Source of the DNA: an uncultured Pseudomonadota bacterium
GTDB lineage: Bacteria; Pseudomonadota; Alphaproteobacteria; Acetobacterales; Acetobacteraceae
Direction of reading: 5' to 3'
DNA: 64,000 nucleotides
NCBI GenBank assembly: GCA_963723455.1
Contig: CAVRQM010000004.1
Location: forward strand, 37,324 to 101,323
In this document: in pieces, positions 8,718 to 62,790 of the stretch
Numbering within the stretch: position 1 is the first letter of the stretch
How the letters are laid out: each line of letters begins with the position of its first letter
Made by a program: the position numbers and the translations under genes
Notes under the pieces: generated by a model
Seen by the model: only the letters and a program-made list of their open reading frames with translations
Database searches by the model: none
Told to the model about the DNA's origin: nothing

Positions 8718-10267
8718 ATGGCCAGCCAGCGGAGCAGTCCCGCCAGCCTCGTCGCCTCGGCTCGCGACGGAACCGCGGACCCGTTCGCGGAGTATGCCAG
8801 CGGACCGTTCTTCTGCGAGTTGACGGCGTTGCGCGACGGCGATGGCGGCGCCGGGCTGGCGCTGCAGCGGCGCATCGCGGCGATCGGGATGACGGCGCTG
8901 CGCGCCCGCGCCGCGGCGGCGGAGACCGACCTGATCAATCTCGGCATCACCTTCACGGTCTATTCCGAAGCCGCGGCGATCGACCGCATCCTGCCCTTCG
9001 ACTGCATTCCCCGCTGCTGACCGCCGGGGAATGGCGGGTGCTGGAATCCGGCGTCAAGCAGCGCGTGGCGGCGCTGAACGCCTTTCTGCGCGACATCTAC
9101 CACGACCGACACATCATCCGCGACGGCGTGATCCCGGCCGAGCTGGTGCTCGGGAACGCCAATTACCGGCCGGAGATGCAGGGCTTCCCGGTCCGCTTCG
9201 GCACCTATGTGCATATCTGCGGCATCGACATCGTGCGCGACCAGACCGGCGGGTTCCTGGTGCTGGAGGACAACGCCCGCACGCCGTCCGGCGTGTCGTA
9301 CGTGGTCGAGAACCGGCATCTGATGGCGCGCGCCTTCCCCGACCTGATGGCCGGCATGCGGCTGCGCCCGGTGGACGATTACGGGCGCCGGCTGCACGAG
9401 GCGATGTCGGAGATCGCGCCGGAGGGCGTGGGCGATCCGCAGGTCGTGCTGCTCAGCCCCGGCATCTATAACTCGGCTTATTTCGAGCATGTCTTTCTCG
9501 CCCGCGAGATGGGCGTGCCGCTGGTCGAGGGCGCCGACCTGATGGTGGACGACGATCGGGTGTGGATGCGCGTGACCGGCGGGCGGCGGCCGGTGCACAC
9601 CATCTATCGCCGCATCGGCGACGATTTCCTCGACCCCACGGTGTTCCGGCGCGAGAGCGTGCTGGGCGTCCCCGGCCTGATCGGCGCCTGGCGGGCTGGC
9701 AACGTCACGCTGGCCAACGCGGTCGGCACCGGGGTCGCCGACGACAAGGCGATCTACGCCTACATGCCGCGCATCATCCGCTATTATCTCGACCAGGACG
9801 CGATCCTGCCGAACGTGGAGACCCATATCTGCCGCGAGCCGGCGGGCCTGGCCTATACGCTGGACCGGCTGGAGCAACTGGTGGTCAAGCCGGTGGGCGA
9901 ATCGGGCGGCTACGGCATTACCATCGGGACGCGCGCCAGCCGCGCCGAACTGGACGCGGCGCGCGCCGCCCTGATCGCCGATCCGGCGAACTGGATCAGC
10001 CAGCCGGTGATCTCGCTGTCGGTCGGCCCCACCCTGACCGAGCACGGCATCCGGCCCCGGCATCTGGATCTGCGTCCGTTCGCCGTCACCGGGCGCGATA
10101 CCTGGGTGCTGCCGGGCGGGCTGTCGCGCGTGGCGCTGAAGGAGGGCAGCCTGGTGGTCAACTCCTCGCAGGGCGGCGGCAGCAAGGACACCTGGGTGCT
10201 GGCCGACGACGATGCGGTCGGCGGCGAGGCGGTGGATGGCGGGCCGGTAGAAGTCGGGGCTGCATGA
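8718..10267 (+). pseudogene. circularly permuted ATP-grasp type 2 protein, one frameshift
   Basis: The N-part (…DLINLGITFTVYSEAAAIDRILPFDCIPR) ends at a TGA in one frame. The rest (LLTAGEWRVLESGVKQRVAALNAFLRDIYHD...ICGIDIVRD...LEDNARTPSGVSYVVENR...) continues in the 8648-10267 frame. The join is at about 9010-9016. Confidence 0.8.
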
Positions 10268-11286
10268 CCCGCGAGACGCCGCTGCTGGCGCGCTACGCCG
10301 AGTGCCTGTTCTGGATGGCGCGCTACCTGGAGCGGGTCGAGAACCTCGCGCGGCTGGTGGACGTGACCGAGACCGTCGAAAGCCCGGGCCGCGAGGCGAG
10401 GCCTGGCTCGGGCTGCTGCGCATCAACGCCGACTTGGCGGCATTCTTCGCGCGCGGGCTGGCCGGTCAGCGCCGAGGCGGTCAAGCGGTTCTATCTGTGC
10501 GACCCCGGCAACCCGACCGGCATCCCGGCCAGCCTGGAGGCGGCGCGGTTCAATGCGCGCATGCTGCGGCCGCTGATCTCGACGGAGATGTGGCGGCAGC
10601 TGAACATGTTCCATCGCGACATGGCGGCGATCGATCCGGCCGAACTGGCCGGGCGACCAGCTGAGCCGTCTGTGCGCGCGCATCAAGGAAGGCGTGCAGG
10701 CGCATACCGGCATCACCGAGGGCACGCTGTTCCGCGACCAGGGCTGGTGCTTCTACCAGCTCGGCCGGCTGATCGAGCGGGCCGACCAGACCACCCGGCT
10801 GCTGGACATCCGCTATCATCTGCTGGTGCCCGCGGCGGGCGAGGCGCGGCGGGTGGCCGAGATGACGCAATGGGGCGGCGTGCTGCGCGCCGCCGCCGGC
10901 CATCATGCGTTCCGCCGCGTGGCCCCGCCGGGCTTCACGCCGGCCGACGTGGTGGCGTTCCTGCTGGCCGATACCAGCTTCCCGCGCAGCGTCGGGCTGT
11001 GCATCGAGCAGATCGAATGGCTGCTGTCGCATCTGCGCACCAAATACCGGCTGCGCGGCACCGCCCCGCGCTGGAGCGGGTCGAGGAATTGCGCGCCGCC
11101 GTGCTGGCGAGGCCGATCGCGCAGATCATCGCGGGCGGCCTGCATCAGTTCCTGGACGGCGTGCAGCGCGACCTGATCCTGCTGGCCGGCGAGATCGGCA
11201 CGGCATTCTTCCGCGACTGGAGGCCGCTTGCCGATCCGGCGGAGGCGAGCCAAAGCCAGAGCCAAGGCCAGATTCGGGCGGCGTAG
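10264..11286 (+). pseudogene. alpha-E domain protein (partner of the CP ATP-grasp), at least 4 frame changes
   Basis: The start overlaps the upstream stop (ATGA). Recognisable segments (LLARYAECLFWMARYLERVENLARL / EAWLGLLRINADL / SAEAVKRFYLCDPGNPTGIPASLEAARFNARMLRPLISTEMW / GITEGTLFRDQGWCFYQLGRLIERADQTTRLLDI...) alternate between three frames, at about 10395, 10455, 10655 and 11065. Confidence 0.8.
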
Positions 11287-11411
11287 CTGCCGTGATTGCG
11301 GGCAGACTGACGCCGTGCGGGCAGATCCTTGCCAACGACCATTTTACCTTCGCCATATTGGCCGTGGCGCGGTTCCTGCTAAGATCCACACACCAAAGAA
11401 GGGGTTCGGGC

Positions 11412-12611
11412 ATGCAAAACGACGAAACCACGACCGCCGCTGTGCATCGTCCGACATCCGCGGAATCGACCGTGACTGCGGCACGCGGATTTTCGCGCCG
11501 CATTCTGCTGGCCCGCTCGGCGGCGCTCGGCGGCGTCGCGGCGCTGGGTCCGTTCGTGGTGCGACGAGGCGCGGTCGTCCTCGGGCGCGCTGAGCCTGCT
11601 GAACTGGTCCGACGAGGAGCCCAATCCGCTGATCCCGGATTTTGAGAAGGCGACCGGCATCAAGGTCACGACCACGCCGTTCTCGCAGAACGAGGAGCAG
11701 ATCAACAAGCTGCAGGCGACCGGCGGCGAGGGCTTCGACCTGTGCCAGCCGACGCACGACCGCGCGCTGCAGTTCAAGGACCTGGGCGTGCTGGCGCCGT
11801 TCGACGAAAGCAAGCTGGCGATCGACAATCTGCTTCCTGCGCCTGGCGCATGTGTCCGATACGCTGTGGCGCTGGGACGGCAAGCTGTACCACACGCCGC
11901 ATTGCTGGGGCAGCGAGGCGATTGTCGTGGCGCACCGACAAGACCACACTGGACTACACGACGCTCAGCTACGGCACGCTGTGGGACGACCGAATACAAG
12001 GGCCAGGTGCAGGGCCGGCCGCACTCGTTGCTGCTCGGCATCGGCCTGTGGCTGGACGGCAGCGGCAAGGTGCCGAGCAACCGCATGCTGGACGCCTATA
12101 AGGATCCGGCGACGATGAAGCAGATCTACGACCAGCATCCTGCCGGTGGCGCTCGCGCACAAGCCGTGGATCAAGCAGTTCTGGGATTCGGCGCCGACAA
12201 CACCAAATCCGGGCTGATGGAGAACGACGTCGTGATCGGCCAGACCTGGGACGGGCCGGTCGATCAGCCTGAAGAAGGCCGGCAAGCCGGTCGCCTACAT
12301 GGCGCCGAAGGAAGGCGCGATCGCCTGGGTCGACGGCTGGGCGCTGGTGCAGCCGGCGCGCAAGTCGAGCAGGCCTATGCGTGGCTGCAGTACGTCCACT
12401 CGCCCGCGGGATCGGCGCAGCATGGCCGAACATTCCGGCTACAACCCGGTGGTCAAGGGAGCCGACGCGCTGCTGTCGGCCAAGGCGAAGGCGATCTTCA
12501 ACGCGAGCTATCCCGGGCGACGCGCTGCAAAAGCTGTGGCCGCGGCCGGTGGAGCCGACCTGGTTCGCCGATCTGCGCACCGAGTATGCCGAGAAGTTCC
12601 AGGCCGCCTGA
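11412..12611 (+). pseudogene. ABC transporter periplasmic substrate-binding protein (polyamine PotD/PotF-like), about 10 frame changes
   Basis: The Tat-like leader (RRILLARSAALGGVAALG) is followed by family-like segments scattered over three frames: LSLLNWSDEEPNPLIPDFEKATGIKVTTTPFSQNEEQINKL; WDGKLYHTPHCWGSEAIVV; LLLGIGLWLDGSGKVPSNRMLDAYKDPATMKQIYDQ; APKEGAIAWVDGWAL; QAYAWLQYVHSP; TWFADLRTEYAEKFQAA. Confidence 0.8.
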
Positions 12612-12630
12612 GATCGTGTCGGCGCAAGTC

Positions 12631-12712
12631 CGTCACCCCGGCCTCTTCCGGAGGGAGAGGGAGCAGAAAGCCCTCTCCCTCCGGGGAAGGGTTGGGTGAG
12701 GGGCGTGCCGCC
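12631..12712. repeat. palindromic intergenic repeat element (REP-like), copy 2, between two cistrons of the ABC operon
   Basis: GTCACCCCGGCCTCTTCCGGAGGGAGAGG-GAGCAGAAAG-CCCTCTCCCTCCGGGGAAGGGTTGGGTGAGGGGCGTGCCGCC. The stem CCGGAGGGAGAGG pairs with CCTCTCCCTCCGG. Confidence 0.7.
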
Positions 12713-13785
12713 ATGACGCGCCGACATCGAACTCGACCACGTCACTGTCCGCTTCGGCGCTTTCACCGCCGTCGCCGACGCCAGCCTGCGCATCGCGCCG
12801 GGCGAGTTCTTCTAGCTTCCTCGGCCCCTCGGGCTGCGGCAAGACCACGATCCTGCGCACCATTTCCGGCTTCCTCGAGCCGACCGCGGGCGCGGTGCGC
12901 ATCGGCGGCGCGGACATGCGCGGCATCGGCCCGAACCAGCGGCCGACCGCGCTGATCTTCCAGAAGCCTCGCGCTGTTCCCGATGATGAGCGTGGCCGAG
13001 AATATCGGCTACGGCCTGCGCGTGCGCGGCGTGGCGCGGCGGCAGCGGCGCGAGGCGGTCGAGCGGCTGCTGCATCTGGTCGCGCTGTCCGACCAGGGCG
13101 ACAAGCGGGTCGATGCGCTGTCCGGCGGCCAGCAGCAGCGCGTCGCGATCGCCCGCGCGCTCGCGGTCGAGCCGCAGGTGCTGCTGCTGGACGAGCCGCT
13201 ATCGGCGCTCGACCTGAGGCTGCGCCAGCACATGCGCAACGAGCTGCGCGCGATCCAGCGCCGCGTCGGCGTCACCTTCATCTACATCACCCACGATCAG
13301 GGCGAGGCGCTGACCATGTCCGACCGCGTCGCGGTGATGAATCGCGGCGTGCATCGAGCAGGTCGGCGACGCGCGCGACGTCTACGACCATCCGGCGACG
13401 CTGTTCGTCGCCGGTTTCGTCGGCGAGAACAATGCGCTGCCCGGCCGCGTGGTCGCGGCCGCCGACGGCGAGGCCGCGGTGGAGACGGCGCTGGGCGTGC
13501 TGCGCGGGCGCAATCCGCGCGGGCTGGCGGCGGGGTCGCCGGCGATCGCTGTTCATCCGCCCGGAGATGCTGGAACCGGCCGGCGCGGGGGAGAACGGGT
13601 GCGAGGCGGAGGTTGCCGGCCTGGCCTATCGAAGGCAGCCTGACGCATGTCGACGTTCCGCGCCGGCACAGCCGGCGTGGCGCTGGCCGCGACCATCGGC
13701 GCGGCGTGCGCCCCCGGCGCCCGGCGATCGCATGGCGCTGCGGTTCTCCGCGCGCGACGCCGTGGTGCTGCCGGCCGGCGCCTGA
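12713..13785 (+). pseudogene. ABC transporter ATP-binding protein (PotA-like), about 8 frame changes
   Basis: Walker A (GPSGCGKTT), Q-loop, signature LSGGQQQRVAIARAL, Walker B VLLLDEPLSALD and H-loop ITHDQ are all present but spread over three frames. A TAG sits inside GEFF|SFLGPSG. Confidence 0.85.
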
Positions 13786-13792
13786 GCGGCCG

Positions 13793-14813
13793 ATGCGCAG
13801 CGCCACCTTTCACGGCTTTGTCCTGGCATTGCCGCTGCTGGTCGCCGCCGGCTTCTGGCTGGCCGCCGCGCTGGAACGCCGGCGGCGCGGCAGCACGGCT
13901 TCGTTTATTCGTCGCAACGGAGCCGCGGTGGCGGGCTATCTGCTGCTTGCGACCGGCGTCTGGATGGCGCTGCTGATCGTGCTGCCGCTGCTGACATGGT
14001 CGAACTGTCGTTCCGCCCCAAGCTGCCGCCGATCGCAGAGGGGCGGCCCGCGCGACATCTACACGCTCGCCAACTACCGCTATTTCCTGTTCGGCAACGG
14101 CTTCGACGCGAGCGGCTGGAACGTGCTGCATCTGCGCGCCTTCGCGACCACCATCTTCGTCAGCGTCGGCGTGACCCTGCGTCGATTTCGCTGCTGTGCT
14201 ATCCGCTGGCCTATGCCATGGCGCAGTCGGCCCGCCCGCAGCGCGTGCGGCTGCTGCTGCTGATGCTGGTCGTGCCGTACTGGCTGAACGAGATGCTGCG
14301 CGCCTTCGCATTCCGCGTGCTGCTGAGCGGCAGCGGGCTGGTCAACCGGCTGCTGCTGGGGCTGCGGCCTTGTTGCGCGCGTCCGATCGATTTCCTCGGG
14401 CCTGGACATCGCGATCTATGTCGGCCTGACCTACGCCTACATGCTGCTGATGATGTTTCCGCTGTACAATGCGATCGAGTAGCCTGGACCACAGCCAGAT
14501 CGAGGCGGCGCGCGATCTCGGCGCGCCGTGGTGGCGCATCCACGCCAATGTGGTGATCCCGTTCGCCAAGCCCGGCATCGCCTCGGGCTGCACGCTGGTG
14601 TTCATGCTGTACGCCGGCGCGCTGGCAGCGCCGCTGATCCTCGGCGGCCCGACGACGCTGTGGTTCACGCCGATCGTCTATGACCGCTTCTTTCAGGCGT
14701 TCAACTGGCCGCAGGGCGCGGCCTATGCCTTCATGCTGCTGCTGGCCTGCATCGCGTTCGTGCTGCTGGTGCTGCGCCTGTTCCGGCTGTCGCTGGGGCA
14801 GGTGGTGCGGTGA
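13793..14813 (+). pseudogene. ABC transporter permease (PotB-like), at least 5 frame changes
   Basis: Membrane segments plus the EAA-type loop (LDHSQIEAARDLGAPWWRIHANVVIPFAKPG) are split across frames. The ORFs starting at 12983, 13996 and 14469 each carry part of the protein. Confidence 0.8.
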
Positions 14814-15740
14814 CCGGGACGCTGGTCAACCGGGCGTTGCTGGGCGTCGTACTGGTGCTGTTCTTCGGCTTCCTGTTCGGGCCGGTGCTGGTCATCGCCG
14901 TCACCGCATTCAATGCCTCCGGCTATCCGCAGGTGCTGCCGTTCGAGGGGTTCACGCTGGCGCTGGTTCGCAACGCTGGCTGCCGATCAGGAGATGCTGT
15001 ACGGCCTCGGCAACAGCCTGCGCATCGGGCTCTTCGTGGTGCTGCTGTCGGTGCCGCTGGGCCTGGCCGGCGCGATCGTCATGCAGCAGGTGTACGCGCG
15101 CGCACGCGGCATCTACTATCTGGTGGTGGTGGCGCCGGTGCTGACGCCGGGCATCATCATCGGCATCTCGACCGTCATCTTCTGGCGCGGCGTCACCGCG
15201 ACGACCGGGACGCGGTTGCTGTACGACGGCACGGTGCTGACGGTGCTCGGCCAGTCCAGCTTCATCGCATCCTACTGCATGCTGATCTTCCTCGCCCGCC
15301 TGCAGCGCTTCGACGCCGCGCTGTCCGAGGCCGGGCTCGATCTGGGGGCCAGCCAGGCGCAGGTGTTCCGGCATATCCTGCTGCCGTTCCTGCGTCCGGC
15401 GCTGTTGTCGGCGGCGGTGATCGCGTTCCTGTCCAGCTTCGAGAATTACAACACGACGACCTTCGCAATCCTGGCCGACAAGACACTGGTGACCATCCTG
15501 GCAGGGCGGATGCGGCAGGGGCTGACGCCGGCGGTCAGCGCGCTGGCGGTTGTCATCGTTGCGGCCACGATTTTCGGTGCTGTCGTCTACGAAGTGCTGC
15601 AACGCCGTCAGGACCGGCGCAGGCGGGTCCGTCTCGACGACGCCCACCGCGCCAGCGTCGCCGAGACCGCACGGGCACCGGCCGCGGCCAGCGCCGATCC
15701 GCGCACTCCGTCCCGCATCGCCGCGGTTGCTACATCGTAA
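14810..15740 (+). pseudogene. ABC transporter permease (PotC-like), one frame change near 14955-14965
   Basis: A GTG start overlaps the upstream stop. The N-part MTGTLVNRALLGVVLVLFFGFLFGPVLVIAVTAFNASGYPQVLPFEGFTL is in one frame. The rest (RWFATLAADQEMLYGLGNSL...LDLGASQAQVFRHILLPFLRPAL...) is in the 14913-15740 frame. Confidence 0.8.
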
Positions 15741-15815
15741 CAGAAAAGTCATTTGTCTTTCATGGCGCCGCCGCTAGGAAAGGTCCGCCCGGCGGCCTGC
15801 CGCGGGCGCCTGCAC

Positions 15816-17517
15816 ATGGGGACACCGATGGCTCAGGACTGCACTCGCCGCCGCGCCGCCCGGCGCGGAACACGGGCCTTGTCGCTGGGCGCCGCCGCCG
15901 TGCCGCTGGCGCTCGGCGTGGTCCTGCCGTGCCGCGCATCGGCGCAGGACGTCGTGCCGCTGACCGAGAGCATCGCCCCGGCAAGCAGCGCCGATCAGCA
16001 TGCTGGGCCAGGCCGATCCGCAGGCCGCCGTATCGTTCCAGGTGGCGCTGCGGCTGCGCAACAGGACCGATCTGGACGCCCGGCTGGCCCGTGGCGAGAC
16101 GCTGGGGGCGGCCGAACTGGCCGGGCGGCATCTGCCGACGCCGGATGCCTACCGCGCCGTGCGCGCATGGCTGGTCGGCCAGGGGCTGACCGTCGATCGC
16201 GACACCGACGACCGCCTGATGATCCAGGCGCACGGCACCGTGGCGCAAGTCGGCCGGGCGCTGGGGGTCCGCTTCGCGCGGGTCGCCGCTGAGGGCCAGA
16301 CATTCGTCGCTGCGCAGCAGGCGCCGTCGCTGCCGGCCGCCATCGCCGTCGAGGTGGAAAGCATCAACGGCCTGCAGCCGTATCAGCACATGCACCGCAT
16401 GGGGATGGTCGCGCCGATGCCGAGCGCCGAGCGATTGCGGGCCGCGACGGGCGCTGCACGCGGGATCATCATCTCCGGCTTCTACTACCCAGGCGGCATC
16501 CTGCGCGCCTACAAGGCGCTACCGTACCTGGCGCAGACCGGGCAGGGCACGCGCACGGCGATCCTGATCGACGCACTGCCGAACACCAGCGACCTGACCG
16601 CCTTCTACTCGCTGATCGGCAGCCAGCAGACGGTGGCCAATGTCGAGTTCGTCAAGGTCGCGTCCGGCACCCTGCCGCCGCCATCGGGTGAGGAAACGCT
16701 GGACGCCGAATGGGCCAGCGGCATCGGCTACCAGTCCAAGGTCCGCGTCTATGCCGCCGGCAGCCTGGCCTTTACCGCGCTGGACGCCGGGTTCCACGCC
16801 ATCCTGAGCGACCTGTCGAACGGCGTGGCGATCAACCAGCTGTCCATCAGCCTCGGCGCCTGCGAGACCGGGATCTCCTCCGGACAGATCCGCACCGACA
16901 ACGCGCTGCTGGCAAGCATCGCCGCGCGCGGCGTCAGCATCTTCGTCTCGACCGGCGATCAGGGCGCGCTGGAGTGCGGCTCTGGCGGAGGCCTGCATCC
17001 GGCGTTCTATTCAACCAGCCCGTACGTGACCGCGGTCGGCGGCACGCACCTGGTCATTTCCACCAAGACCGCCCATTCGGAAACGGCAACCATCCGCAGC
17101 GAGACCGGCTGGAGCGGCAGCGGCGGCGGCGTCAGCAGCGTGTTCGCGCGACCGTCCTACCAGTCGGCCTTGTCATATCACGGGCGCGCAGTGCCCGATG
17201 TGGCAGCGGTGGCCGACCCGGCGACCGGGGTGGACATCGTGCTGAACGGCGTCACCGAGGAGGTGGGCGGCACTTCCGCCGCCACGCCGATCTGGGCGGG
17301 GTTGGCGTCCCTGGTCAATCAGGCGCGCTTCGCCTCCGGGCTTGCGGCGCTCGGCCAACTCAACCCCCGCATCTACCCGCTGCTGGGCTCCGCCAGCCTG
17401 CGCGACGTCACCCAGGGCAATAACGGCTATACCGCTGGACCTGGTTACGATCTGGTCACTGGTCTCGGCTCGCCGGTGATGAACCAGTTGCTCCCGTCGC
17501 TGGTAGCGCAGCCGTAG
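15816..17517 (+). pseudogene. S53 (sedolisin/kumamolisin-like) serine peptidase with pro-domain; signal peptide is out of frame
   Basis: The signal (RRGTRALSLGAAAVPLALGVVLPCRASAQDVVPL) is in the 15753 frame. The pro-domain and catalytic domain start in the 16000 frame (…TLDAEWASGIG…, SSGDQGA-type STGDQGA, GGTSAATPIWAGL). The join is at about 15975-16000. Confidence 0.75.
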
Positions 17518-25322: not shown

Positions 25323-28300
25323 TCAAGCGCCGTCTGTGCCCGGGGGCGCCGTGCCGAGCAGCTCGCGGATGCGTTCGGCAAGCGTCTCCAGGGCAAACGG
25401 CTTGGGCAGAAGATGCACGTCCGGCGCCAGGCGGCCGCCCCTCGCGCCGTCGCCGATCGATTGTCCGGTGATCAGCAGCACGCGCACGCCCGGCCGCGCA
25501 GCACGGCCGGCGTCCGCGACCTGCCGGCCGTTCATCCCGCCCGGCAGGCCCACATGCGTCACCAGCACGTCGATCGGCACGTCCGAGCGCAGCACCTGCA
25601 TTGCCGCCGCGCCGTCCTCCGCCTCGATCAGCTGCAGCCCCAACGTCGCCGCGACCTCCGCGACCAGCAGCCGCACCGAGGCTTCGTTGTCCACCACCAG
25701 CACCGTCCCGCCCTGTCCCGCAAACTCCGCCGCCTCGGCCCGGTGCGGTCCGGCGGCAGCTTCGCCCTGCGCGTGGCGCGGCAGGTACAGCGTGATCGTG
25801 GCGCCCTGGCCCGGCGCTGACCTGATGCGGATGTCGCCGCCGGACTGCCGGGCGAAGCCATAGGTCATGCTCAGACCCAGCCCGGTGCCCTCCCCGGGCG
25901 GCTTGGTCGTGTAGAATGGGTCGAACGCGCGCGCGATCACCTCCGGCGGCATGCCGGTCCCGGAGTTGGCCACCGACAGCGCCACGTAGTCCCCCGCCGG
26001 TGCATCACCCGGCTGCAGCTGGTGCGCGGCAAACGAGCGGTTGGCGGTGGCGATGGTCAGCCGGCCGCCATCGGGCATCGCGTCGCGCGCATTGATGCAC
26101 AGGTTGAGCAGCGCGTTCTCGAGCTGGTTGGGGTCGATCAGCGTGGGCCACAGCCGGTCGGCCGCGACGACCTCGACGGCGATCGCCGCTCCCACGGTGC
26201 GGCGGACCAGTTCCTCCATCCCCGCCACCAGGCGGTTGACATCGGTGGCGCGCGGTTCGAGCGGCTGCCGGCGGGCAAAGGCCAGCAGCCGGTGGGTCAG
26301 CGCCGCCGCCCGCCGCGACGCGGTCTGCGCCGCCTCGATGTAGCGCGGCAGGTCGTCCAGGCGACCCTGCGCCAAGCGCCGCTCCAGCAGTTCCAGGCTG
26401 CCGGTGATGCCGGTGAGCAGGTTGTTGAAGTCGTGCGCGATGCCGCCGGTCAGCTGGCCGACCGCCTCCATCTTCTGCGACTGGCGCAGCTGTTCCTGGG
26501 TCGCAGCGAGCGCCGCCTCGGCCGCCTTCTCGGCGGTGACGTGGCGGCCGCTGGCGTACACTACGTCATCCGCCGGCGCGGCCACCCAGGAGATCCAGCG
26601 CCAACTGCCGTCACTGTGCAGGTAGCGGTTCTCATAGACCGGCAGGCTCGCCGCGACGGCGACCTCCAGCGCGCGGGCGCTTCCGGCGTGGTCGTCGGGG
26701 TGGACGAAGTCGAGGTAGTTGCGCCCGACCACCTGCTCGGGCCGCCATCCCAGGATGTCGGTCCAGGCCTCGTTTGCCGCGCGAAACACCCCGGCTCTGT
26801 CCAGCACCACCTGCAGGTCGCGCGAGTGTTTCCAGGCCTGGTCGCGCTCGCGCGTGCGCGCCTCGACCTGGCGCTCCAGCTCCTCGCGTGAGCGGGCAAG
26901 CACCTCGCGCGCCTCGACGATCTCCTGGATGTCGGTGCAGGTGCCGAACCACTGGGCGACGGCGCCGTCCTGGTCGAATATCGCGGTGCCGCGCGTCTTG
27001 AACCAGCGATAGCGGCCGTCGCGCCTGCGGATGCGGTAGTCGATGTCGTACGGATGGCGGCCTTCCACCGCGCCCAGCCAGTGCGCCAGAGTCGCTCGCG
27101 ATCGTCCGGGTGGATCACCCGGTCGAGCCAGTGAAGGTCGAGCTGGTCGGCTGCCGCCTGGCCGGTGAACTCCACCCACTGCCGGCTGAGATAGTCGCAG
27201 CGGCCATCGGGCCGGCAGGTCCAGACCAGCTGCGGCAGGGTTTCGGTCAACGTGCGGTAGCGTTCCTCGCTGCGCGCCAGGCGCTGCTCGGCATGCTTGA
27301 GGTCGGTGATGTCGCGCCCGACCGAGACCAGCTGTTCCGGCCGTCCGTCCGGGGCGGGCAGCGGCGAGATCACCACGTCCCAGCACTTCGGCGTGCCCCT
27401 GTGGGTCGGGCAGAAGCCCTGGAACCGACCGATGCCGCCCGCCCTCGCCTGTGCCAGGGCCGCCTCCGCCGTTGCGCGATCCTCGCCCTGCCAGACGCGC
27501 AGCCAGGACAAGCCGATGATCGCATCGGCGTCGGAGATCTCCATCGCCTCGATGCCGCCGGGGCTGACGAAGCGGGTGTAGCCCTCCAGGTCGAGCACGA
27601 CGATACAGTCGCGGCTGGAGTTCAGGATCGCCGCGTTCAGGCCCTGCGCCTCGCGCAGCGCGACGGCGGCGAGCCGCGGCTCGGTGCGGTCGCGCAGGAT
27701 CTTGAGGAACCCGAGATGCTCACCGCCATTGCCGCGCAGCGGCATCAGCTCGCCGCTGGCCCAGAATTGCGAGCCGTCGCGGCGCAGGTGCCAGCGTTCG
27801 TCGCCGGCGCGGCCGTGCGCCACGGCAAGCCGCATTTCGGTCCGCACCCGACCGGCGGCGCGGTCTTCCGGCGTGAAGATCCGGTCCAGCGGCTGACCGC
27901 GCATGTCCTGCGCGGGCCAGCCCAGGATGCGCTCGGCGCCGGTGTTCCAGTCGGTCACCAGGCCGTCGCGATCGGTGGCGACGATCGCGAAGTCCAGCGC
28001 GCTCTGGAAGATCGCCCGCTGTCGTTGTTCGCTCCCATGCTCGCGGCGCAGCGCGAGGCGCAGGTCCAGCAGCGTGACCACCTGCCGAGCCAGCGCCTCC
28101 AGCGCGGCGATTTGCCCCTGCGCCAGCGTGCGCGGCTGATGGTCGAGCACGCACAGCGTGCCCAGCGCCAGCCCGGCCCCGGTCATCAGCGGGACGCCGG
28201 CGTAGAAGCGCAGGCCGAGCAAGGCGGGGTTGGCGGCGTGCTCTGGCGCGGCCTGAGCGTCGGGAATGACGACGGGCGCGGCAGCCGCGACCACGAGCGG

Positions 28301-28534
28301 GCAGAACCCGGCATCCAGGGGCGCCTCGGTCGCCGCGAACCCGATCCGGGCCTTGAACACCTGCCGGTGGTCGTCGATGAACGTCACCAGGGCGATCGGC
28401 GTGCCGCAGATCTGGGCGGCGAGCCGGGCGATGTCGTCGAAAGCCGGCTCGGCCGGCGTATCCAGGATCGCGTACTCCTCCAGCGCGGCGACGCGCCGGG
28501 CTTCGGGATCTGATTGTTGCGGGTCGCCGTGCAT
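25323..28534 (-). pseudogene. GAF-PAS-PAS-PAS hybrid sensor histidine kinase / response regulator, one frameshift
   Basis: Two long same-strand ORFs overlap. The N-part (28534 frame) has GAF plus PAS modules and ends its sensible sequence at ...LDRVIHPDDRE. The C-part (27386-25323 frame) continues ATLAHWLGAVEGRHPYDIDYRIRRRDGRYRWF, then H-box [19 protein letters not shown], the ATPase domain (GTGLGLS) and a receiver domain. The join is at about 27095-27110. Confidence 0.8.
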
Positions 28535-28563
28535 CCTGCGTCGCTATTCCTGTCGTGGGCGGG

Positions 28564-44907: not shown

Positions 44908-44986
44908 GGCGGAGGAGAGAGGATGAGACTCTGGCGTCTGCGGTCCCTCACCCCGGCCCTCTCCCGGAGGGAGAGGGGGAAGCAAG
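44908..44986. repeat. degenerate or partial copy of the palindromic intergenic repeat element, copy 3
   Basis: GTCCCTCACCCCGGCCCTCTCCCGGAGGGAGAGGGGGAAGCAAG matches the left arm of the copies at 7792 and 12631. The upstream GGAGGAGAGAGGATGAGA resembles the right arm. Confidence 0.5.
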
Positions 44987-48188: not shown

Positions 48189-48344
48189 GCGGGGCTGCCC
48201 GGTGCGTCAGGCAGCACATCCCCTGGGCCGATAAGCACTCCCACGGGAGCTGGCTCTGTCGCGATCGTGGTCGCGGTATCCGGCGCCCACCTGCGCAAGC
48301 AGGCCTTGGGAGGATGACAAGTCCAACGGCCATGGCGGCTCCGC
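48189..48344 (+). ncRNA. ssrS: 6S RNA candidate
   Basis: It sits between zapA and the 5-formyl-THF cyclo-ligase gene, the classical ssrS position. An 11-bp closing stem pairs GCGGGGCUGCC (48189-48199) with GGCGGCUCCGC (48334-48344). The 5' bubble strand CCCCUGGGCCGAUAAGCACUCCCAC resembles E. coli 6S CCCCUGAGCCGAUAUUUCAUACCAC (recalled). There is an apical imperfect hairpin at 48245-48288 and a 3'-side hairpin CCUGC-GCAA-GCAGG at 48290-48303. The ends are approximate. Confidence 0.6.
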
Positions 48345-48910: not shown

Positions 48911-48923
48911 AGAAAAATCCGTC

Positions 48924-49740
48924 ATGCGAATCCTGTTCCTGGGCGACGTCGTCGGCCGTTCCGGCCGCGAGGCCGCTGTCGCCGCCCTGCCCACGCTGCG
49001 CGAGCGGCTGGGCATCCACCTCGCCGTCGTCAACGCCGAGAACGCGAGCCACGGCTTCGGTCTGGGCGCCCGACATGGCCGCGGCCCTGTTCGCCGCCGG
49101 GGCCGATGCGATCACGCTGGGCAACCACGCCTGGGACCGCAAGGAACTGATCGCCTATATCGCGCAGGAGCCGCGGGTCATCCGGCCGCTGAACTTCCCG
49201 CCCGGCACGCCGGGCGGGGGCAGCGTGGTGGCGGCGCTGGCGGATGGCCGGCGCGCGCTGGTGATCAATGCGATGGGGCGGCTGTTCATGGACGCGCTGG
49301 ACTGCCCTTTCCGCGGCACGGCGGTCGAACTGTCGCGGCACCGGATGGGCGGCACCGTCGCCGCCGTGGTGATCGACTTCCACGCCGAGGCGACCAGCGA
49401 GAAGGCCGCCTTCGCCCATTCGTTCGACGGCCAGGCGAGCCTGATCGTCGGCACCCACACGCATGTTCCGACATCGGACCACCAGGTGCTGCCCGGCGGC
49501 ACCGCGTTCCAGTCCGATGCGGGCATGTGCGGCGACTACGACAGCGTGATCGGCATGGCCAAGGACGGCGCTGCCACCCGGTTCTGGAAGAAGATGCCGG
49601 GCGACAAGCTGCAGCCGGCGGAAGGCGTCGCCACCGTGTGCGGCGTGTTCGTCGAGACCGACGACGCCACCGGCCTGGCCCGGCGCATCGAGCCGGTGCG
49701 CCTGGGCGGCCGGCTGTCGCAGGCGATGCCGGCGGTGTAG
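48924..49740 (+). pseudogene. YmdB-like metallophosphoesterase (TIGR00282 family), one frameshift
   Basis: MRILFLGDVVGRSGREAAVAALPTLRERLGIHLAVVNAENASHGFGLG is in one frame. PDMAAALFAAGADAITLGNHAWDRKE...DFHAEATSEK...GTHTHVPTSD... is in the 48409-49740 frame. The join is at about 49063-49072. Confidence 0.8.
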
Positions 49741-54515: not shown

Positions 54516-55797
54516 CTATGGCGGGGCGGCCAGCAATAGCCGGTTGGCGGCGACCAGACGCGACGCGGTCTGGCTCCAGGCGTGGCGGAACGCCGGCTCC
54601 GGCGTGCCGCGCGCCGCCAGCGCCGTGCCGATCCCGGCCACGCTGCGCCGCCCGTCCACCAGCCGCAGCATGGCAGCGGCCAAGGGCGGCAACGGGAGAG
54701 CGGTGGCCAGCGCCTCGCAGCTGAACGGCAGCACCCCGTCGGCGCGGATCGCCGCCGCCAGCGCCTCGCCGGCGCCCTCGCGCGCCACCGGCACCGCATC
54801 CGGCGCGGCCAGGTCGGGCGGCGGCGGCCGGTCGGCGGCGCGCACGCAATAGACGACGTGCGTGCTCATTGTTCCCGACAGCGCCTCGGCCAGCGCCGCG
54901 CGCGCAGCGCCATCCAGGGCCGAAGCGCGCGCCCGCAATCTCGGGTCCGGCAGGTAGGCGTCGGGGTCGTAGCGCAGCGGCTCCATCAGGCAGGTCGCCG
55001 CCAGCCCGGCCCCGTCCAGCAGGCGCAGCAGCCGGTCGATGGTGAAGGCCTGGTCGCGCGGGTTCAGCAGCAGGTCGAACAGGCCGGCGTCGCCGCCGGC
55101 GAGATGGTCGGTGACCGAGCGGTTCTGCGGCAGCCACGCGCCGTGCGGCAGGTGGCGCAGCACGCGCCGGGCCACGTCCAGCCGCTCGATCGGCGGCTGG
55201 TCCTGCGGCGCCAGCAACCGGAGCGCGTCCTGGACCATGTACACGCCGGTGCGCCCGTGCGGCGCATAGACCATCAGGCCCATGCCGCCGCCGGGCGCCA
55301 GCACCCCGGCCAGCGCCGCAAGCCCCGCCGCCGGATCGGGCAAGTGGTGCAGCACGCCGCAACAATCGATGTAGTCGAACGGCGGCAGCCCCATCAGCGG
55401 CAGGTCCAGCAGCGAGCCGTGCCGCCACTCGACCAGGTCCTGCAGCCCGCGCGCCGCGATGCGTTCGCGCGCCACCGCCATCGCCGCCGCCGAGCGGTCG
55501 AGATACACGAGTTCGTCCGTCGCGCCGCTCGCCCGCGAGCTGGGCGGCCAGCATCACCAGCGCGTCGCCGGTGCCGCCGCCGGCGACCAGCGCCCGCAGC
55601 GGCCGCGCGCGCGACCGGCGGACGGCGAACACGTGATGGTCGATCTCGCGCAGGTGGCTCGGGCTGCCGATCAGCAGCCGCCTGGCTTCGTCGCGCGGAT
55701 CGCGTTGCGGATACGGGAACGCCTCGGTACTGGGCGGCGAGGCGGTCGTCAGACGGGTCGGCCACCCTGTCGTCTCCTTGGGCCGGGAACACTGCAT
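54516..55797 (-). pseudogene. class I SAM-dependent methyltransferase with C-terminal extension, one frameshift
   Basis: The N-part (…EAFPYPQRDPRDEARRLLIGSPSHLREIDHHVF...ALVAGGGTGDALVMLAAQL) is in the 56046 frame. The continuation (RASGATDELVYLDRSAAAMAVARERIAARGL...DYIDCCGVLHHLPDP...) is in the 55508-54516 frame. The join is at about 55535-55541. Confidence 0.75.
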
Positions 55798-55885: not shown

Positions 55886-58100
55886 ATGCCCAGTGGATCG
55901 CCCCACGACGAGCTGGACCTGCTGCGCGCCGAGGCGCGCGTGCTGAACATGGTGGCGATCGGCGCCGGGCTGGCCGAGACGCTCGACGCGCTGGTCGCCG
56001 CGGTCGAGGCGCAGGAGCCGGGGTTGCGCTGCGGCATCCTCATCACGGCCGAGGACGGCGCCTGTTTTCGTCGCGGCGTCGGCGCGACCCTGCCGGAACG
56101 CTACCACGCGGCGCTGGACGGCATTTCCATCCTGCCGCCCTATCTGGGCGCCTGCGGCGAGTTCTGCCGATCTGGGCGAGCCGGTCATCGTGCCCGACAT
56201 CGCCCATGAGCGCCGCTATCCGGCGGAGTGGCGGGCGCTGCTGGCCAGCTGCGGCCTGGCCGCGATGCGGTCAACTCCGGTGCGCGGCGCCGATGGCCGG
56301 GTCCTCGGCTCGTTCGCGATGTATTTCGACGCGCCGCGCGATCCCACGCCGGCAAACCCGGAGTTGCCGGGCATCGCCGCGCGGCTTGCCGCGATTGCCT
56401 TGCAGCGCGCCGGGGAAGCGTCCGCGATGCGCCAGGAGATCGCCGCCCGGCGCGAGGTCGAGGCGGCGCTGCGCGCCCAGCAGGCGCAGCTGCGGGCGGT
56501 GATCGAGACCGTGCCCGCGGCGGTGTGGTTCACCCACGACCCCGATGCGAGCCGCGTCGGCGGCAATGCCGAGGCGGCCAAGCTGCTGCGCATGCCGGAA
56601 GCCGCCAATTCCTCGTTGACCGGCTCGCCGGAGCAGCGCCCGACGCATTTCCGCCTGATCCGGAATGGTGCGGACATCCCGCCCGAGCGGCTGCCGATGC
56701 AACGCGCGGCGCGCGGCGAGACGGTGGCCGCCGAGGAGCTGGAACTGGTCTTTCAGGACGGCTCCTCGGCGCACATCCTGGCCCGCGCCACCCCGCTGCG
56801 CGACACGACGGGGGCGCTGGCCGGCGCGGTGTGCGCGGCGCTGGACATCACCGAGCGCAAGCGCGCCGAGACGGCGCTGCGCCACTCCGAGGAGGAGTTC
56901 CGCGCGCTCGGCGAGAACCTGCCGAACCTATGCTGGATGGCGCGGGCGGATGGCGGGATTTACTGGTACAACCGCGGCTGGTACGACTACACGGGCGCCA
57001 CGCCCGAGCAGATGGAAGGCTGGGGCTGGCGGTCGGTGCATGACCCGGCGGTGCTGCCGGAGGTGATGCGGCGCTGGACCGAGGCGATCGCGGCCGGGGC
57101 CGCGTTCGAGATGACGTTCCCGCTGCGTGGCGCGGACGGCGTGTTCCGCCCGTTCCTGACCCGCATCGTGCCGGTGCGCGATGCCGCCGGCTGCATCACC
57201 CGCTGGTTCGGCAACAACGTCGAGATCAGCGAGCAGCAGCGCACCGAGGCGGCTCTTCGCCTGAGCAAGGAGGCGTTGCGGCGGCTGAACGAACAGCTTG
57301 GCGCGCGCGTCGCCGAGGCGGTCGCGGCGCGCGAGCAGGCGCAGCAGCGGCTGGCGCACGCGCAGCGGATGGAGGCGCTGGGTCAGCTTGCCGGGGGCAT
57401 GGCGCACGACTTCAACAATGTGCTGCAGGCGGTGCTGGGCGGCCTGCGCCTGATCGAGCGGCGGGCGGGCGACGCCGGCGCGGTGGACCAGGTGGCCCGC
57501 ATGATCGGCGAGGCGGTCGAGCGCGGCGGCCGTGTCACCGCGCGCCTGCTGAGCTTCGCGCGCAAGGGCGAGCTGCAGGCGGCCCCGGTGCCGGCGGCGG
57601 CGCTGCTGGAGGGGATGCGGGAGATGCTGGCGGCGACGCTGGGCGCGCCGATCGCCGTCGAGGTCGTCGCCGACGCGGACGCGCCGCCGCTGGTGGCCGA
57701 CAAGGCGCAGCTCGAGACGGTGCTGGTCAACCTGGCCGTGAACGCCCGTGATGCCATGCCGGAGGGCGGCACGCTGACCCTCTCGGTCGTGCCTGACGCC
57801 GTTGCGGACGCCGCGCACCCGGCCGGGCTGGCGCCGGGCGAGTATGTGCGGCTTGAACTGGCGGACACCGGCCTCGGCATGGATGCGGCGGTGCTGGCGC
57901 GCGCCTCGGAGCCGTTCTTCACCACCAAGCCTGATGGCGAGGGCACCGGCCTGGGCCTGGCGATGGCGCGCGGGTTCGCCGAGCAGTCCGGCGGCGGCTT
58001 CGCCATCAGCAGCGCGCCGGGGCAGGGCACCACGGTCAGCCTATGGTTCCCGCAGGTCCAGGCCGCTGCGCAGCGGGAGCAGGCGCAGGCGGCGGATTGA
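55886..58100 (+). pseudogene. GAF-PAS-PAS sensor histidine kinase, one frameshift inside the GAF domain
   Basis: MPSGSPHDELDLLRAEARVLNMVAIG...PPYLGACGE is in one frame. ...ADLGEPVIVPDIAHERRYPAEWRALL..., the PAS modules, H-box MEALGQLAGGMAHDFNNVL and the ATPase domain (GTGLGLA) are in the 56190-58100 frame. The join is at about 56150-56170. Confidence 0.8.
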
Positions 58101-59934: not shown

Positions 59935-62790
59935 GTGGCCGATGACGTCGAGGACGAGCTGACGCGGCTGCGCCGGCAGAACGCCACGCTGGCCGCGCAA
60001 CTCGGCCGCCAGCGGCAGTCCGATGTCGCGCACCAGGTGGACGAGGCGGCGCTGCACGCCAGCGAGCGGCGGCTGCGCGACACGCTGGAAAGCATCGAGG
60101 ACGCATTCCTGCTGGTCAGCCGCGATTGGCAGGTGATCGACCTCAACATGCATACCGTTCGCATGGCCGGGCGGCCCGCCTCTCGCCTGGTCGGGCGCAA
60201 CCTGTTCGAGTTGTGGCCGGAGGCCGCCGGCGCGATGGAGGCGGCGCTGCGCCGGGCCATGGCCGAGCGCCGGCCCGACCGGATCGTCTATCATCGCCGC
60301 CGGGACGATCGCGACCGCTGGCTCGACCTGCGGATCTTCCCCACCGCGCAGGGCCTGACACTGTTCTTCCGCGACACCACCGAGCAGGAGGAGGCGCGGC
60401 AGCGGCTGGCGCGGGCCGAGAGCAGCGCCCGCCTGGCGGTCGAGGCGGCTCGGCTGGGGGTCTGGAGCTATGAGCCGCTGAGCAACGTTTTGCAGTGCGA
60501 TGCCCGCAAGCGCGCCATGTTCGGGCTGCGGCCGGATGAGCCGGTGGACTTCGACACTCTGCTTGTGCGGATCCACCCCGATGACCGCGCGCGCTTCGGG
60601 GCGGCGATGGAAGCGACGATGGACCCGGCCGGCGGCGGCGACATCGTGCAGGAATACCGTGCGATCGGCACGAGCGATGGCGGCGAGCGCTGGCTCGCGG
60701 TCATGGGACAGGCGCAGTTCGAACATGGCCGCTGCGTGCGCGTGGACGGCGTGGTGCAGGACATCACCGAGCGACGCCGCGCGGACGCGGCGCTGGCCGA
60801 GAGCGAGGGGCGATTCCGCGCCATCGCCGAGGCGACCCCCGGCCTCGTGTTCGTGGCCGACGCCGCCGGCCTGAATACCTACGTCAACCCGCAGTTCTGC
60901 GAATTCACCGGCCTGCCGCAATCCGCCCTGCTGGGGGACGGCTGGATGCAGGCGGTGCATCCCGACGACCGTGCCCGCTCGGCCGCCAACTGGATGGACG
61001 CGGTGCGGTCCGGGCAGGCGTATCAGGTGGAGCAGCGGCTGCGCAGGAGCGACGGCGCCTATCAATGGTTTCTCTGCCGGGGGGTGGCGCTGCGCCAGCC
61101 GGGCCGCCTGCCGGGCAGCGAGGGGCGCATCGTGCAATGGTTCGGCACCGGCGCCGATATCGAGGATCTGGTTGCGGCCCGGCAGGTGCTGGCGCGCGAC
61201 CGCACTGCGTTGGAAAGGCTGGTTGCCGAGCGCACCGCGGCGCTGGGCGCCACGCTGGGGCGGCTGCGCGAGGAGGAGGCGCGGCTGCGCGCGCTGTTCC
61301 TGCACTCCAGCGAATGTCTGTATCTGCTGCGAGTCGAGCCGGGACGCGGCCCGGTGTTCCTGGCCGTCAACCCGCCAGGCGAGGCGGTGCTGGGTCGCCC
61401 GCTCGCCGAGATCATCGGTCGCACGCCGGCCGAGCTGGCGAGCAGCGAGACGGAAGCGCGGGAGATCGACGCAAACCTGGCCGCGGCGCTGGCGCCCGGA
61501 GCCGGGCCGCATCGCTATTCCGCGCGCCGCAGCTATGGCCGCGAGCAGCGGCTGCTGGAGGCGGTGGCGGTAGCGCTGGATGGTCCTGGGGATGAACGGC
61601 TGGTCCTGATCACCGCGCGCGACGTGACCGGGCAGCGGGCGTTGGAGGAGGCGCTGCGGCAAAGTCACAAGATGGACGCGATCGGCCAGTTGACCGGCGG
61701 CATCGCGCACGACTTCAACAATCTGCTGACCGGCATCGGCGGCAGCCTGGAGCTGATCCGTAGCCGCGCCGCGGCCGGGCGCGTGACCGAGATCGAGCGC
61801 CATGTCGGGGCCGCCGCGGAATCGGTGCGGCGCGCGGCGGCGCTGACGCATCGGCTGCTGGCCTTCGCCCGCCGTCAGGCGCTGGACCCGAAGCCCTGCC
61901 GACCTCAATCGCCTGGTGGCCGGGATGCGCGAGCTGGTGGCCAGGACGGTTGGGCCGTCGATCGTCGTCGAGACGGCGCTGGACCCGGATCTGTGGCCGG
62001 CGCTGTGCGACGCCAACCAGATGGAAAACGCGCTGCTGAACCTGTGCCTCAACGCGCGCGACGCGATGCCGGACGGCGGCACGCTGCGGATCGGGACGGC
62101 GAACGTCCCGGCGGCGGGCGACGCTGAAGCATGCGTCGGGGTCCGATGCCGTCTCCATCAGCGTGACCGACAGTGGATGCGGTATGGACGCCGAAGTCGC
62201 CGCGCGCGCCTTCGAGCCGTTCTTCACCACCAAGCCGATCGGCCAGGGCACCGGGCTCGGGCTGTCGATGCTGTACGGCTTCGTGCGCCAGTCCGGCGGC
62301 CAAGCGAGGCTGCACAGCCAGCCGGGCCAGGGGACGACGGTGCGGGTTGCCCTGCCGCGCCATCACGGGACCGGTCCACGAGTTGGACGCAACGCCCGCA
62401 AAGCCGGCGACAGCCGTGCCGGCCAGAGCTCGGGCGTCCTGGTGGTCGAGGACGAGCAGCTGGTGCGCAGCCTGGCGGTGGAGGTGCTGGAGGAGCAGGG
62501 ATATGCGCGTGCTCGAGGCGGCCGACGCGATCGCGGCGCTGGAGATCCTGCGGCGTGACGAGCCGGTGGATCTGCTGCTGACCGATGTCGGGCTGCCCGG
62601 CATGAACGGGCGGCAGCTGGCCGATGCGGCGCGCGTCCAGCGGCCGCAGCTCAAGGTGCTGCTGATTACCGGCTACGCGCACAATGCCGGCGGATCGGCC
62701 GGGCTGGTGGGGCCGGGGATGGAACTGCTGGGCAAGCCGTTCGGGCTGGAGACGCTGACCAGCCGGGTGCGGGCGATGCTGGCCGGGTGA
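59935..62790 (+). pseudogene. multi-PAS hybrid sensor histidine kinase / response regulator, about 3 frame changes
   Basis: The PAS modules and H-box [19 protein letters not shown] are in the 59935 frame. LVAGMRELVARTVGPSIVVE...NLCLNARDAMPDGGTL is in the 61916 frame. VTDSGCGMDAEVAARAFEPFFTTKPIGQGTGLGLS...VLVVEDE is in the 62163 frame. The receiver tail VLEAADAIAALEIL...LLLTDVGLPGMNG is in the 62173 frame. Joins are at about 61900, 62130-62160 and 62505. Confidence 0.8.

Follow-up and report, generated by a model that had tools for sequence, protein, structure and literature searches.

Genes of the window and their frame breaks

The window, the whole stretch of DNA analysed, is 64 kb in length. 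Seven neighbouring genes occupy positions 8718–17517 (Table 1): a circularly permuted (CP) ATP-grasp gene, an alpha-E gene, the four genes of a polyamine-type ABC importer and an S53 peptidase gene. Gene identities are backed by Pfam (CP_ATPgrasp_2, Alpha-E, ABC_tran, TOBE_2, two BPD_transp_1, Pro-kuma_activ/S53). The block carries 31 frame-changing indels, 26 insertions and 5 deletions, all of 1–2 nt. Frame shifts per gene are 1 (CP ATP-grasp), 4 (alpha-E), 10 (ABC binding protein), 8 (ATPase), 6 (permease 1), 1 (permease 2) and 1 (S53 peptidase), as counted by frameshift-aware protein-to-DNA alignment against intact orthologues. Plain blastx against the ORFs of the locus was too noisy at 71% GC (shadow frames align) and was replaced by this alignment and by a reference-free codon Viterbi. 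Both GC3 phase and codon-usage Viterbi show the frame switching repeatedly at ~9.0–16.0 kb, on one strand and with no stop codon; at 16.0–25.3 kb the frame is steady by the same two measures. Frame shifts are absent from 17.5–25.3 kb.

A preliminary description of this DNA had reported seven consecutive frame-broken genes, hand counts of 1, 4, ~10, ~8, at least 5, 1 and 1, no break in the adjacent 17.5–25.3 kb, and peptide segments still recognisable between the breaks. The broken genes are confirmed by GC3 phase, codon Viterbi, Pfam and frameshift-aware alignment. The counts differ little from those given above, the adjacent region is borne out as steady in frame, and the corrected genes are 66–91% identical to their orthologues, with no in-frame stop. 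The block is real, but it is not the sole broken place that had been pictured: a second patch at 61.9–63.8 kb and single breaks elsewhere are also present.

Table 1. Coordinates of the frame-broken genes and of the hairpin element in the window
Feature	Position	Strand	Remarks
CP ATP-grasp type 2 gene	8718..10267	+	Pfam CP_ATPgrasp_2, E = 1e-154; ATG at 8718
Alpha-E domain gene	10264..11286	+	Pfam Alpha-E match split over two frames
ABC transporter substrate-binding protein gene, polyamine-type operon	11412..12611	+	
REP-like palindromic intergenic element, 106 nt	12614..12719	.	Insertion relative to L003
ABC transporter ATPase gene (ABC_tran + TOBE_2)	12713..13785	+	Pfam fragments
ABC permease 1 gene (BPD_transp_1)	13793..14813	+	6 frame shifts: 5 × +1, 1 × −1
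ABC permease 2 gene (BPD_transp_1)	14810..15740	+	One +1 insertion at ~14957
S53 (sedolisin/kumamolisin-type) peptidase gene	15828..17517	+	Pfam Pro-kuma_activ
GAF-PAS-PAS-HisKA-HATPase-REC kinase gene	25326..28543	−	Read in two frames
ymdB-like gene	48920..49740	+	Isolated +1 insertion at ~49065; YmdB profile positions 1–48 in one frame, 46–253 in the next
SAM-dependent methyltransferase gene	54519..55728	−	Isolated +1 insertion at ~55500
GAF-PAS histidine kinase gene	55907..58100	+	Isolated +1 at ~56165, indicated by profile and codon Viterbi
Hybrid histidine kinase gene (PAS-HisKA-HATPase-REC)	59935..62790	+	+1 insertions at ~61894, 62125, 62505; second patch begins
MFS (sialate:H+ symporter-type) transporter gene	62899..64000	+	Nine pieces, eight +1 insertions; continues past window end

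The CP ATP-grasp gene has a single 1-nt deletion at ~9016, on whose site MAFFT alignment against the closest relative (L081) and frameshift-aware alignment agree; after correction it is free of stop codons and 91.5% identical in amino acids to the gene of L081. The alpha-E gene has four 1-nt indels (deletion at 10397, insertions at 10464 and 10651, deletion at 11067); the corrected product, also without a stop codon, has 87.5% amino acid identity to that of L081. The 10 shifts of the ABC binding protein gene (8 × +1, 1 × +2, 1 × −1) are reproduced in the DNA alignment and in the reference-free codon Viterbi, and frameshift-aware alignment with the orthologue of a second relative (L003) gives 81.9% amino acid identity and no stop codon. 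The ATPase gene has 8 × +1: seven come from the L003 alignment and one lies directly after the ATG (12713), whose frame is shifted by +1 relative to the rest of the gene. Its corrected product is 76.4% identical in amino acids to that of L003, with no stop codon. The S53 peptidase gene has one +1 insertion at ~15984–15993, placed at one common site by 4/4 homologues and without a stop codon, which puts the signal-peptide region and the body of the gene in different frames. Where this gene starts is uncertain (15762, 15816 or 15828); homologues are ~50 aa longer at the N-terminus. The phosphoesterase gene adjoining the block aligns to its homologues without any shift. Its ORF extends ~38 codons beyond the ends of the homologues.

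The second dense patch (61.9–63.8 kb) holds 11 × +1, three in the hybrid histidine kinase gene and eight in the MFS transporter gene. The called hybrid kinase has 730 aa and is without HATPase and REC, versus 811–948 aa in orthologues; its three +1 sites are agreed by four homologues, with no stop codon. In the transporter gene the +1 sites are at ~63088, 63233, 63306, 63463, 63677, 63705, 63745 and 63833, and the gap between neighbouring pieces is exactly 1 nt in each case. The stitched protein gives a continuous MFS_1 match over positions 2–343 of 347 (E = 7e-38) and a TIGR00891 match with E = 1e-105, versus weak fragment matches only for the unstitched ORFs. Single events are found in four further genes, those in the two kinase genes being probable ones. 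In the methyltransferase gene motif I (GGGTGD) is in one frame and the remaining domain in the next, and the Pfam match begins at profile position 21. In the GAF-PAS kinase gene the GAF_2 match begins at profile position 54, and the codon Viterbi changes frame without a stop codon. The kinase gene at 25326..28543 has its domains split over two overlapping open frames, with no stop at the switch and a PAS motif spanning the junction; the split probably results from a 1-nt deletion at ~27095. The remaining single event is that of the ymdB-like gene. Three further candidates were rejected: at 29.78 kb the two genes MoeA and MoaC are each complete, the gap at 47.7–48.3 kb holds 6S RNA, and a 2-nt shift in an aminotransferase near 622 is unconvincing, the C-terminus there being divergent.

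The REP-like element within the operon folds into a hairpin of −76.5 kcal/mol (z = −6.8). A second copy is present in the window at 44957–44977, and another match in an intergenic region of L081. The element is outside the error pattern, though located at the patch centre.

Clustering, indel spectrum and selection

The events are strongly clustered. Thirty of the 44 first-tallied window events lie inside 6976 bp, versus 4.8 expected (binomial P = 3e-19); the 31st block event was found after this test. Rates are ~1 indel per 11 kb over most of the sequence and ~1 per 160–230 bp in the patches. Event density in the block is bell-shaped around ~12.7 kb, with 14 events on either side of the hairpin element. 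The limits of the patch (~9.0–16.0 kb) do not match those of the variable segment (~11.3–17.5 kb).

Insertions predominate: 39 versus 6 deletions in the whole window, one or two events being of 2 nt and all others of 1 nt. Curated bacterial pseudogenes have 300 insertions versus 396 deletions (0.76), with a mean deletion of ~19 nt and a mean insertion of ~4.5 nt (PMC6054270). The departure from this ratio is significant for the window (binomial P = 3e-9, calculated on 38:6, one insertion being added later) and for the block (P = 7e-6, on 25:5).

The events are independent of local sequence. Within ±6 nt, the longest homopolymer has a mean length of 2.32 at events versus 2.38 at random positions, none of the events falls in a run of more than 4, and enrichment of 4-mers at events is absent after correction for 167 tests. 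The motifs GATC/CGATC, AGCAT and the CcrM site GANTC, recurrent by eye, do not survive the enrichment test. Some 13/20 single inserted bases are unlike both neighbours and are therefore not slippage duplications.

In-frame stop codons are absent from every corrected gene. The dN/dS is 0.12–0.32 in the broken genes versus 0.19–0.34 in intact upstream genes, a measure dominated by the long divergence from the references and hence of little power against very recent decay; at that divergence no direct measure of excess substitutions is possible. The comparison with relatives is between species: L081 is 93% identical in amino acids but only 87% in DNA, and no relative above 90% identity is present in the genome collection searched. 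The ATP-grasp and alpha-E genes are unbroken in 7/8 relatives. The eighth is L003, another metagenome-assembled genome, which has a different frameshift of its own and an intact ABC operon. The ABC operon and the S53 gene are missing after alpha-E in L081, and the ABC genes are common only to L003. In the aligned orthologues and relatives no shift is found at the shift positions of the window.

Origin of the frame breaks

The frame breaks are very probably local consensus errors in an assembly of single-molecule long-read type, in low-depth or poorly polished patches. This explanation is favoured because the indels are 39:6 in favour of insertions, nearly all of 1 nt and context-independent, because nonsense codons and relaxed dN/dS are lacking and relatives do not share the breaks, and because the pattern recurs in unrelated genes. 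Events of this kind occur on both strands, in the second patch, ymdB, the methyltransferase and two more kinases. The breaks would then be errors of the deposited consensus, and the DNA of the organism would be unchanged. Consensus quality would be good over most of the contig and drop to about that of a corrected single read in a few patches several kb long, where too few local reads, or too little polishing support, would have left random insertion errors, mostly of one base, uncorrected. The patchiness itself is probably due to low depth or failed polishing. As judged from sequence, the genes under the breaks (the CP-ATP-grasp/alpha-E pair, the four-gene polyamine-type ABC importer and the S53 peptidase) are probably intact and working. 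Against consensus error stand the strong insertion bias, unlike that of the usual polished high-GC assemblies, and the partial coverage by the patch of an accessory segment, which could be dispensable and decaying, the ABC operon being missing at that position in L081.

The preliminary description had offered three explanations; the error-prone consensus patch is now favoured, and recent decay and a local mutational process are disfavoured. Its remark that uniformly spread error does not fit agrees with the patchiness and the clustering reported above. Base runs, which it had raised as possible sites of the indels, have zero association with them. A dN/dS near 1, which it had also raised, is not found, the broken genes having values like those of intact neighbours. 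For ordinary old pseudogenes it had envisaged the same breaks in relatives together with many nonsense changes; seven of the eight relatives are unbroken for the conserved pair, and stops number zero.

Genuine, very recent pseudogenisation, in which a block released from selection has taken up ~31 real indels, is very improbable. It would suit the involvement of all seven adjacent genes, the accessory nature of the ABC operon and S53 gene, and the REP-like element inserted within the operon. Real pseudogenes, however, show nonsense mutations as well, and constraint on them is relaxed. At a substitution-to-indel ratio of roughly 10:1, that of mutation-accumulation studies, and with ~2.3% of random substitutions giving a stop in this sequence, ~7 nonsense codons would be expected, versus none found. 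The block ratio of 26:5 (versus 0.76:1 in real bacterial pseudogenes), the 1–2 nt size and context independence of the events, and a dN/dS not above that of intact neighbours also argue against decay. The conserved ATP-grasp/alpha-E pair, intact in relatives, is broken too, and +1 events of the same kind occur 10–50 kb off in unrelated genes (ymdB, several kinases). A real, local, insertion-biased mutational shower, for example from error-prone repair or from gap-filling synthesis spanning a few kb at a lesion or break, that struck at least two regions of the Acetobacteraceae genome so recently that almost no substitutions followed, can be given only a slight chance. The bell-shaped density around ~12.7 kb, symmetrical about the hairpin, the second cluster at 61.9–63.8 kb, and indels without visible excess substitutions are consistent with it, but the surroundings of the hairpin copy at 44.96 kb are free of errors, for which reason the hairpin was rejected as patch cause. 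A shower would also imply simultaneous loss of ymdB, several kinases and two transporters, and random single-molecule read error accounts for these observations more simply. The known break-associated Pol IV hotspots give −1 deletions in base runs, and we know of no bacterial process that inserts single bases without a template, away from repeats, as often as 1 per 160 bp. If true, the shower would be a clustered, insertion-biased indel mutagenesis undescribed in bacteria.

Corruption after base-calling (mixed-strain polishing or consensus, a hybrid polish that skips unsupported regions, or a data-handling fault) is a variant of the artefact and, as a separate cause, very improbable. Errors come in patches separated by tens of kb of clean sequence, and the first patch falls partly in a strain-variable segment, which would differ in depth or mappability; its limits are nevertheless unlike those of that segment, the S53 gene body is clean whereas the conserved alpha-E gene is broken, and such corruption is indistinguishable here from simple low depth. 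Programmed recoding (ribosomal frameshifting, transcriptional slippage or insertional RNA editing) that restores proteins from a truly shifted template has a practically negligible probability. Allowing shifts does yield one continuous, conserved, stop-free protein per gene, but the sites have no slippery or other motif in common, number up to 10 in one gene, include both +1 and −1 events, and are unshifted in orthologues. To our knowledge, no recoding system of this kind exists in bacteria.

The pattern points to the block as a data-quality flag and not as biology. If the breaks are artefacts, at least 13 genes in the window are wrongly called as pseudogenes, truncated or split, among them the ABC importer, the S53 peptidase, several sensor kinases, the MFS transporter and ymdB, and pseudogene counts, pan-genome comparisons and metabolic reconstructions from the contig inherit the error. 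A high density of +1 shifts combined with a lack of stop codons and an unaltered dN/dS would serve as a read-free flag for such regions. Were the indels real, they would suggest an unknown clustered, insertion-biased mutational process.

Comparison with known systems

Several adjacent genes, each with several frame-disrupting indels, are also seen among the pseudogenes of decaying or reductive genomes. The present block differs from these in its 6.5:1 ratio of insertions to deletions, indel size of 1–2 nt, absence of stops and unchanged dN/dS. One-base shifts are shared with homopolymer slippage (phase-variable contingency loci; 454/Ion Torrent errors). Unlike slippage, the events here have no base-run association, and the majority of inserted bases match neither neighbour.

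Long-read (PacBio CLR/Oxford Nanopore) errors are similar in their one-base indels, conserved residues and truncated calls, such as the 730-aa kinase, and become worse at poor depth or polishing. Indels that fragment genes are a known fault of long-read assemblies, for which detection tools exist (PMC12007338, PMC8574707). Raw errors of PacBio type are random and not homopolymer-tied, with indels ~15× as frequent as substitutions, and the 1-nt, context-independent spectrum fits such random single-molecule read error; early nanopore reads are deletion-rich (PMC4719071). In ARAMIS, the errors left in high-GC PacBio assemblies of good coverage are for the most part G/C deletions within homopolymers. 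Set against both these homopolymer deletions and the deletion-rich early nanopore reads, the insertion bias does not allow the platform to be named with confidence. Unlike the published high-GC PacBio residuals, the present errors are mostly insertions, lie outside homopolymers and form patches of a few kb. The patches look like uncorrected raw-type error, not systematic consensus error.

Reference loci and gene content

The window has a G+C content of ~71%. Its host is judged, from 80 related loci retrieved with the ATP-grasp protein, to be an Acetobacteraceae-type alphaproteobacterium. No same-species relative was found: in the public protein collection, ten intact proteins from across the window each clustered alone at 90% identity. 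Reference proteins came from L081 (closest relative, GCA_963758455.1), L003 (another metagenome-assembled genome) and S53 homologues from a representative-protein search. ATP-grasp of L081 is 93% identical to that of the window in amino acids and 87% in nucleotides; its ATP-grasp and alpha-E genes are intact. L003 has the gene order of the window (intact ATP-grasp, alpha-E, binding protein, ATPase, two permeases) at 75–82% nucleotide identity.

Upstream of the ATP-grasp gene, a syntenically conserved tandem pair of paralogous outer-membrane beta-barrel/OmpA-like genes has ~72% DNA identity to each other's counterparts in L081. After alpha-E comes an accessory insertion with the genes of the ABC importer and the S53 peptidase, missing in L081, which carries sodium:solute symporter, amidohydrolase and asparagine synthase genes at that place. 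Among 81 loci, ABC genes at this position are common only to L003. The 5-formyltetrahydrofolate cyclo-ligase gene and zapA flank a 6S RNA (ssrS, Rfam RF00013, 69.6 bits), a classic conserved arrangement.

Distribution of frame breaks

Third codon positions are ~90% G+C in a genome this GC-rich, so the true reading frame is visible. On a sliding GC3 plot the + strand frame changes repeatedly at ~8.95–16.0 kb and is steady at 16.0–17.5 kb and beyond. A codon-usage Viterbi decoding, trained on long intact genes of the window, gave the same picture. Breaks were counted with a purpose-written frameshift-tolerant protein-to-DNA aligner and cross-checked with plain DNA alignments. The preliminary description had reported seven consecutive frame-broken genes at 8718–17517 with ~30 frame changes (1, 4, ~10, ~8, at least 5, 1 and 1 per gene); alignment to orthologues gives 1, 4, 10, 8, 6, 1 and 1. 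The description is thus confirmed. These 31 events comprise 26 insertions and 5 deletions, and nearly all breakpoints were recovered by the reference-free Viterbi decoding. The gene identities then proposed are matched by Pfam: CP_ATPgrasp_2, Alpha-E over two frames, ABC_tran and TOBE_2 fragments, two BPD_transp_1 and Pro-kumamolisin/S53. The adjacent 17.5–25.3 kb, described as unbroken, contains no frame break by Viterbi, and its adjoining phosphoesterase aligns to homologues unshifted. This phosphoesterase/phospholipase C-family ORF runs ~38 codons past the C-termini of its 460–470 aa homologues, where coding signal is weak; the extra codons may be a genuine tail, or the original stop codon may have been lost to an indel.

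Features and frame-changing events (+1, one-base insertion; -1, one-base deletion; window positions unless a locus is named)
Feature	Position	Strand	Events or remarks
OmpA-like pair	5262-6305; 6622-7686
ATP-grasp	9016	+	1, deletion
alpha-E	10397; 10464; 10651; 11067	+	4: deletion, insertion, insertion, deletion
Binding protein		+	10: eight +1, one +2, one -1
ATPase	12713 (ATG)	+	8: seven +1, plus one +1 immediately 3' of the ATG
Permease-1		+	6: five +1, one -1
Permease-2	14957	+	1, +1
S53 peptidase	~15990	+	1, +1; same site from 4/4 homologues
Accessory segment	11300-17517
Accessory site in L081	12534-21491
REP-like hairpin	12614-12719
REP-like copy	44957-44977		intergenic
REP-like related copy in L081	9073-9144
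Phosphoesterase extension	17456-17572	-
GAF-PAS-kinase-receiver, large gene	~27,095		probably -1
6S RNA	48189-48345	+
ymdB	~49,065		isolated +1
SAM methyltransferase	~55,500	-	isolated +1
GAF-PAS kinase	~56,165		isolated +1
Second dense patch	61,894 to window end
Hybrid histidine kinase	second patch		three +1
MFS transporter	second patch		eight +1
alpha-E of L003	11006-11059		net +1

A second dense patch runs off the window end. The hybrid histidine kinase insertions are concordant in four homologues; its predicted product on the source contig is truncated to 730 aa and has no HATPase or REC, and orthologues have 811–948 aa. The MFS (sialate-symporter-type) transporter is cut into nine pieces with exactly one base between neighbours. 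Joined, these give one unbroken MFS_1 match (2–343 of 347 positions; TIGR00891 E = 1e-105), whereas the unjoined ORFs give only scraps. Among isolated events, those in the GAF-PAS kinase and the GAF-PAS-kinase-receiver gene are placed by domain architecture and frame reading rather than homologue alignment. The first 9 kb yielded no event. The whole window holds 39 insertions and 6 deletions, at ~1 per 163–233 bp inside patches against ~1 per 11 kb between them.

The accessory status of the ABC/S53 genes may reflect reduced depth in a mixed population or, in principle, dispensability; the limits of the first patch (9.0–16.0 kb) and of the accessory segment (11.3–17.5 kb) do not coincide. A REP-like palindromic hairpin of 106 nt (-76.5 kcal/mol, z = -6.8), intergenic between binding protein and ATPase and absent from L003, sits exactly in the middle of this patch. 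The element seems to belong to a dispersed repeat family of the lineage. No breaks surround the copy at 44.96 kb, so the central position is treated as coincidence.

Character and origin of the indels

Nearly all events are of one base, and insertions are in the large majority. One-base indels in nature arise mainly from slippage in base runs. The preliminary description had proposed tabulating homopolymer siting; no link to base runs was found (longest run within 6 nt 2.32 on average at events, 2.38 at random positions), nor any enriched 4-mer. About two-thirds of inserted single bases differ from both neighbours, so the insertions are not duplications by slippage. Once events are removed, every gene reads through without an in-frame stop codon. 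A dN/dS near 1, for which a test had been proposed, was not obtained: values against orthologues are 0.12–0.32 in broken genes, indistinguishable from 0.19–0.34 in intact upstream genes. ATP-grasp and alpha-E are unbroken in 7/8 relatives; in the exception, L003, a separate shift lies close to the 3' end of alpha-E, and its site differs from those of the window's breaks.

Mutation-accumulation studies give ~10 times as many substitutions as indels, and 2.3% of substitutions in this sequence create a stop; ~7 nonsense codons are therefore expected beside 31 indels, and none is observed. That one signature recurs on both strands in unrelated genes, and is concentrated in patches a few kb long, points to an origin in the sequence rather than in the organism. 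Of the three explanations first offered, an error-prone consensus patch is favoured by the insertion bias, the lack of stops and the recurrence; very recent indel-driven decay and a local mutational process are not. A real insertion-biased mutational shower would be remarkable and is highly improbable. The breaks are very likely consensus patches built from too few reads or missed by polishing. The genes beneath the shifts are probably intact, and the block is very likely not a biological feature.

Curated bacterial pseudogene indels (n=696) comprise 300 insertions and 396 deletions, with a mean deletion of ~19 nt and a mean insertion of ~4.5 nt (PMC6054270). The insertion excess of the window differs from this ratio (P = 3e-9, computed on 38:6), and real pseudogenes do not show its pattern of insertion excess, one-base size and no nonsense codons. 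In PacBio-type raw single-molecule reads, indels are described as ~15 times commoner than substitutions, falling at random positions in the read and independently of homopolymers (PMC4719071). Fragmentation of genes by indels is a known weakness of long-read assemblies (PMC12007338, PMC8574707). No platform is named as the source of the errors, the insertion bias fitting neither reported profile: well-covered high-GC PacBio assemblies are reported to have G/C deletions in homopolymers (ARAMIS) and early nanopore reads are deletion-rich (PMC4719071), whereas the window is insertion-biased.
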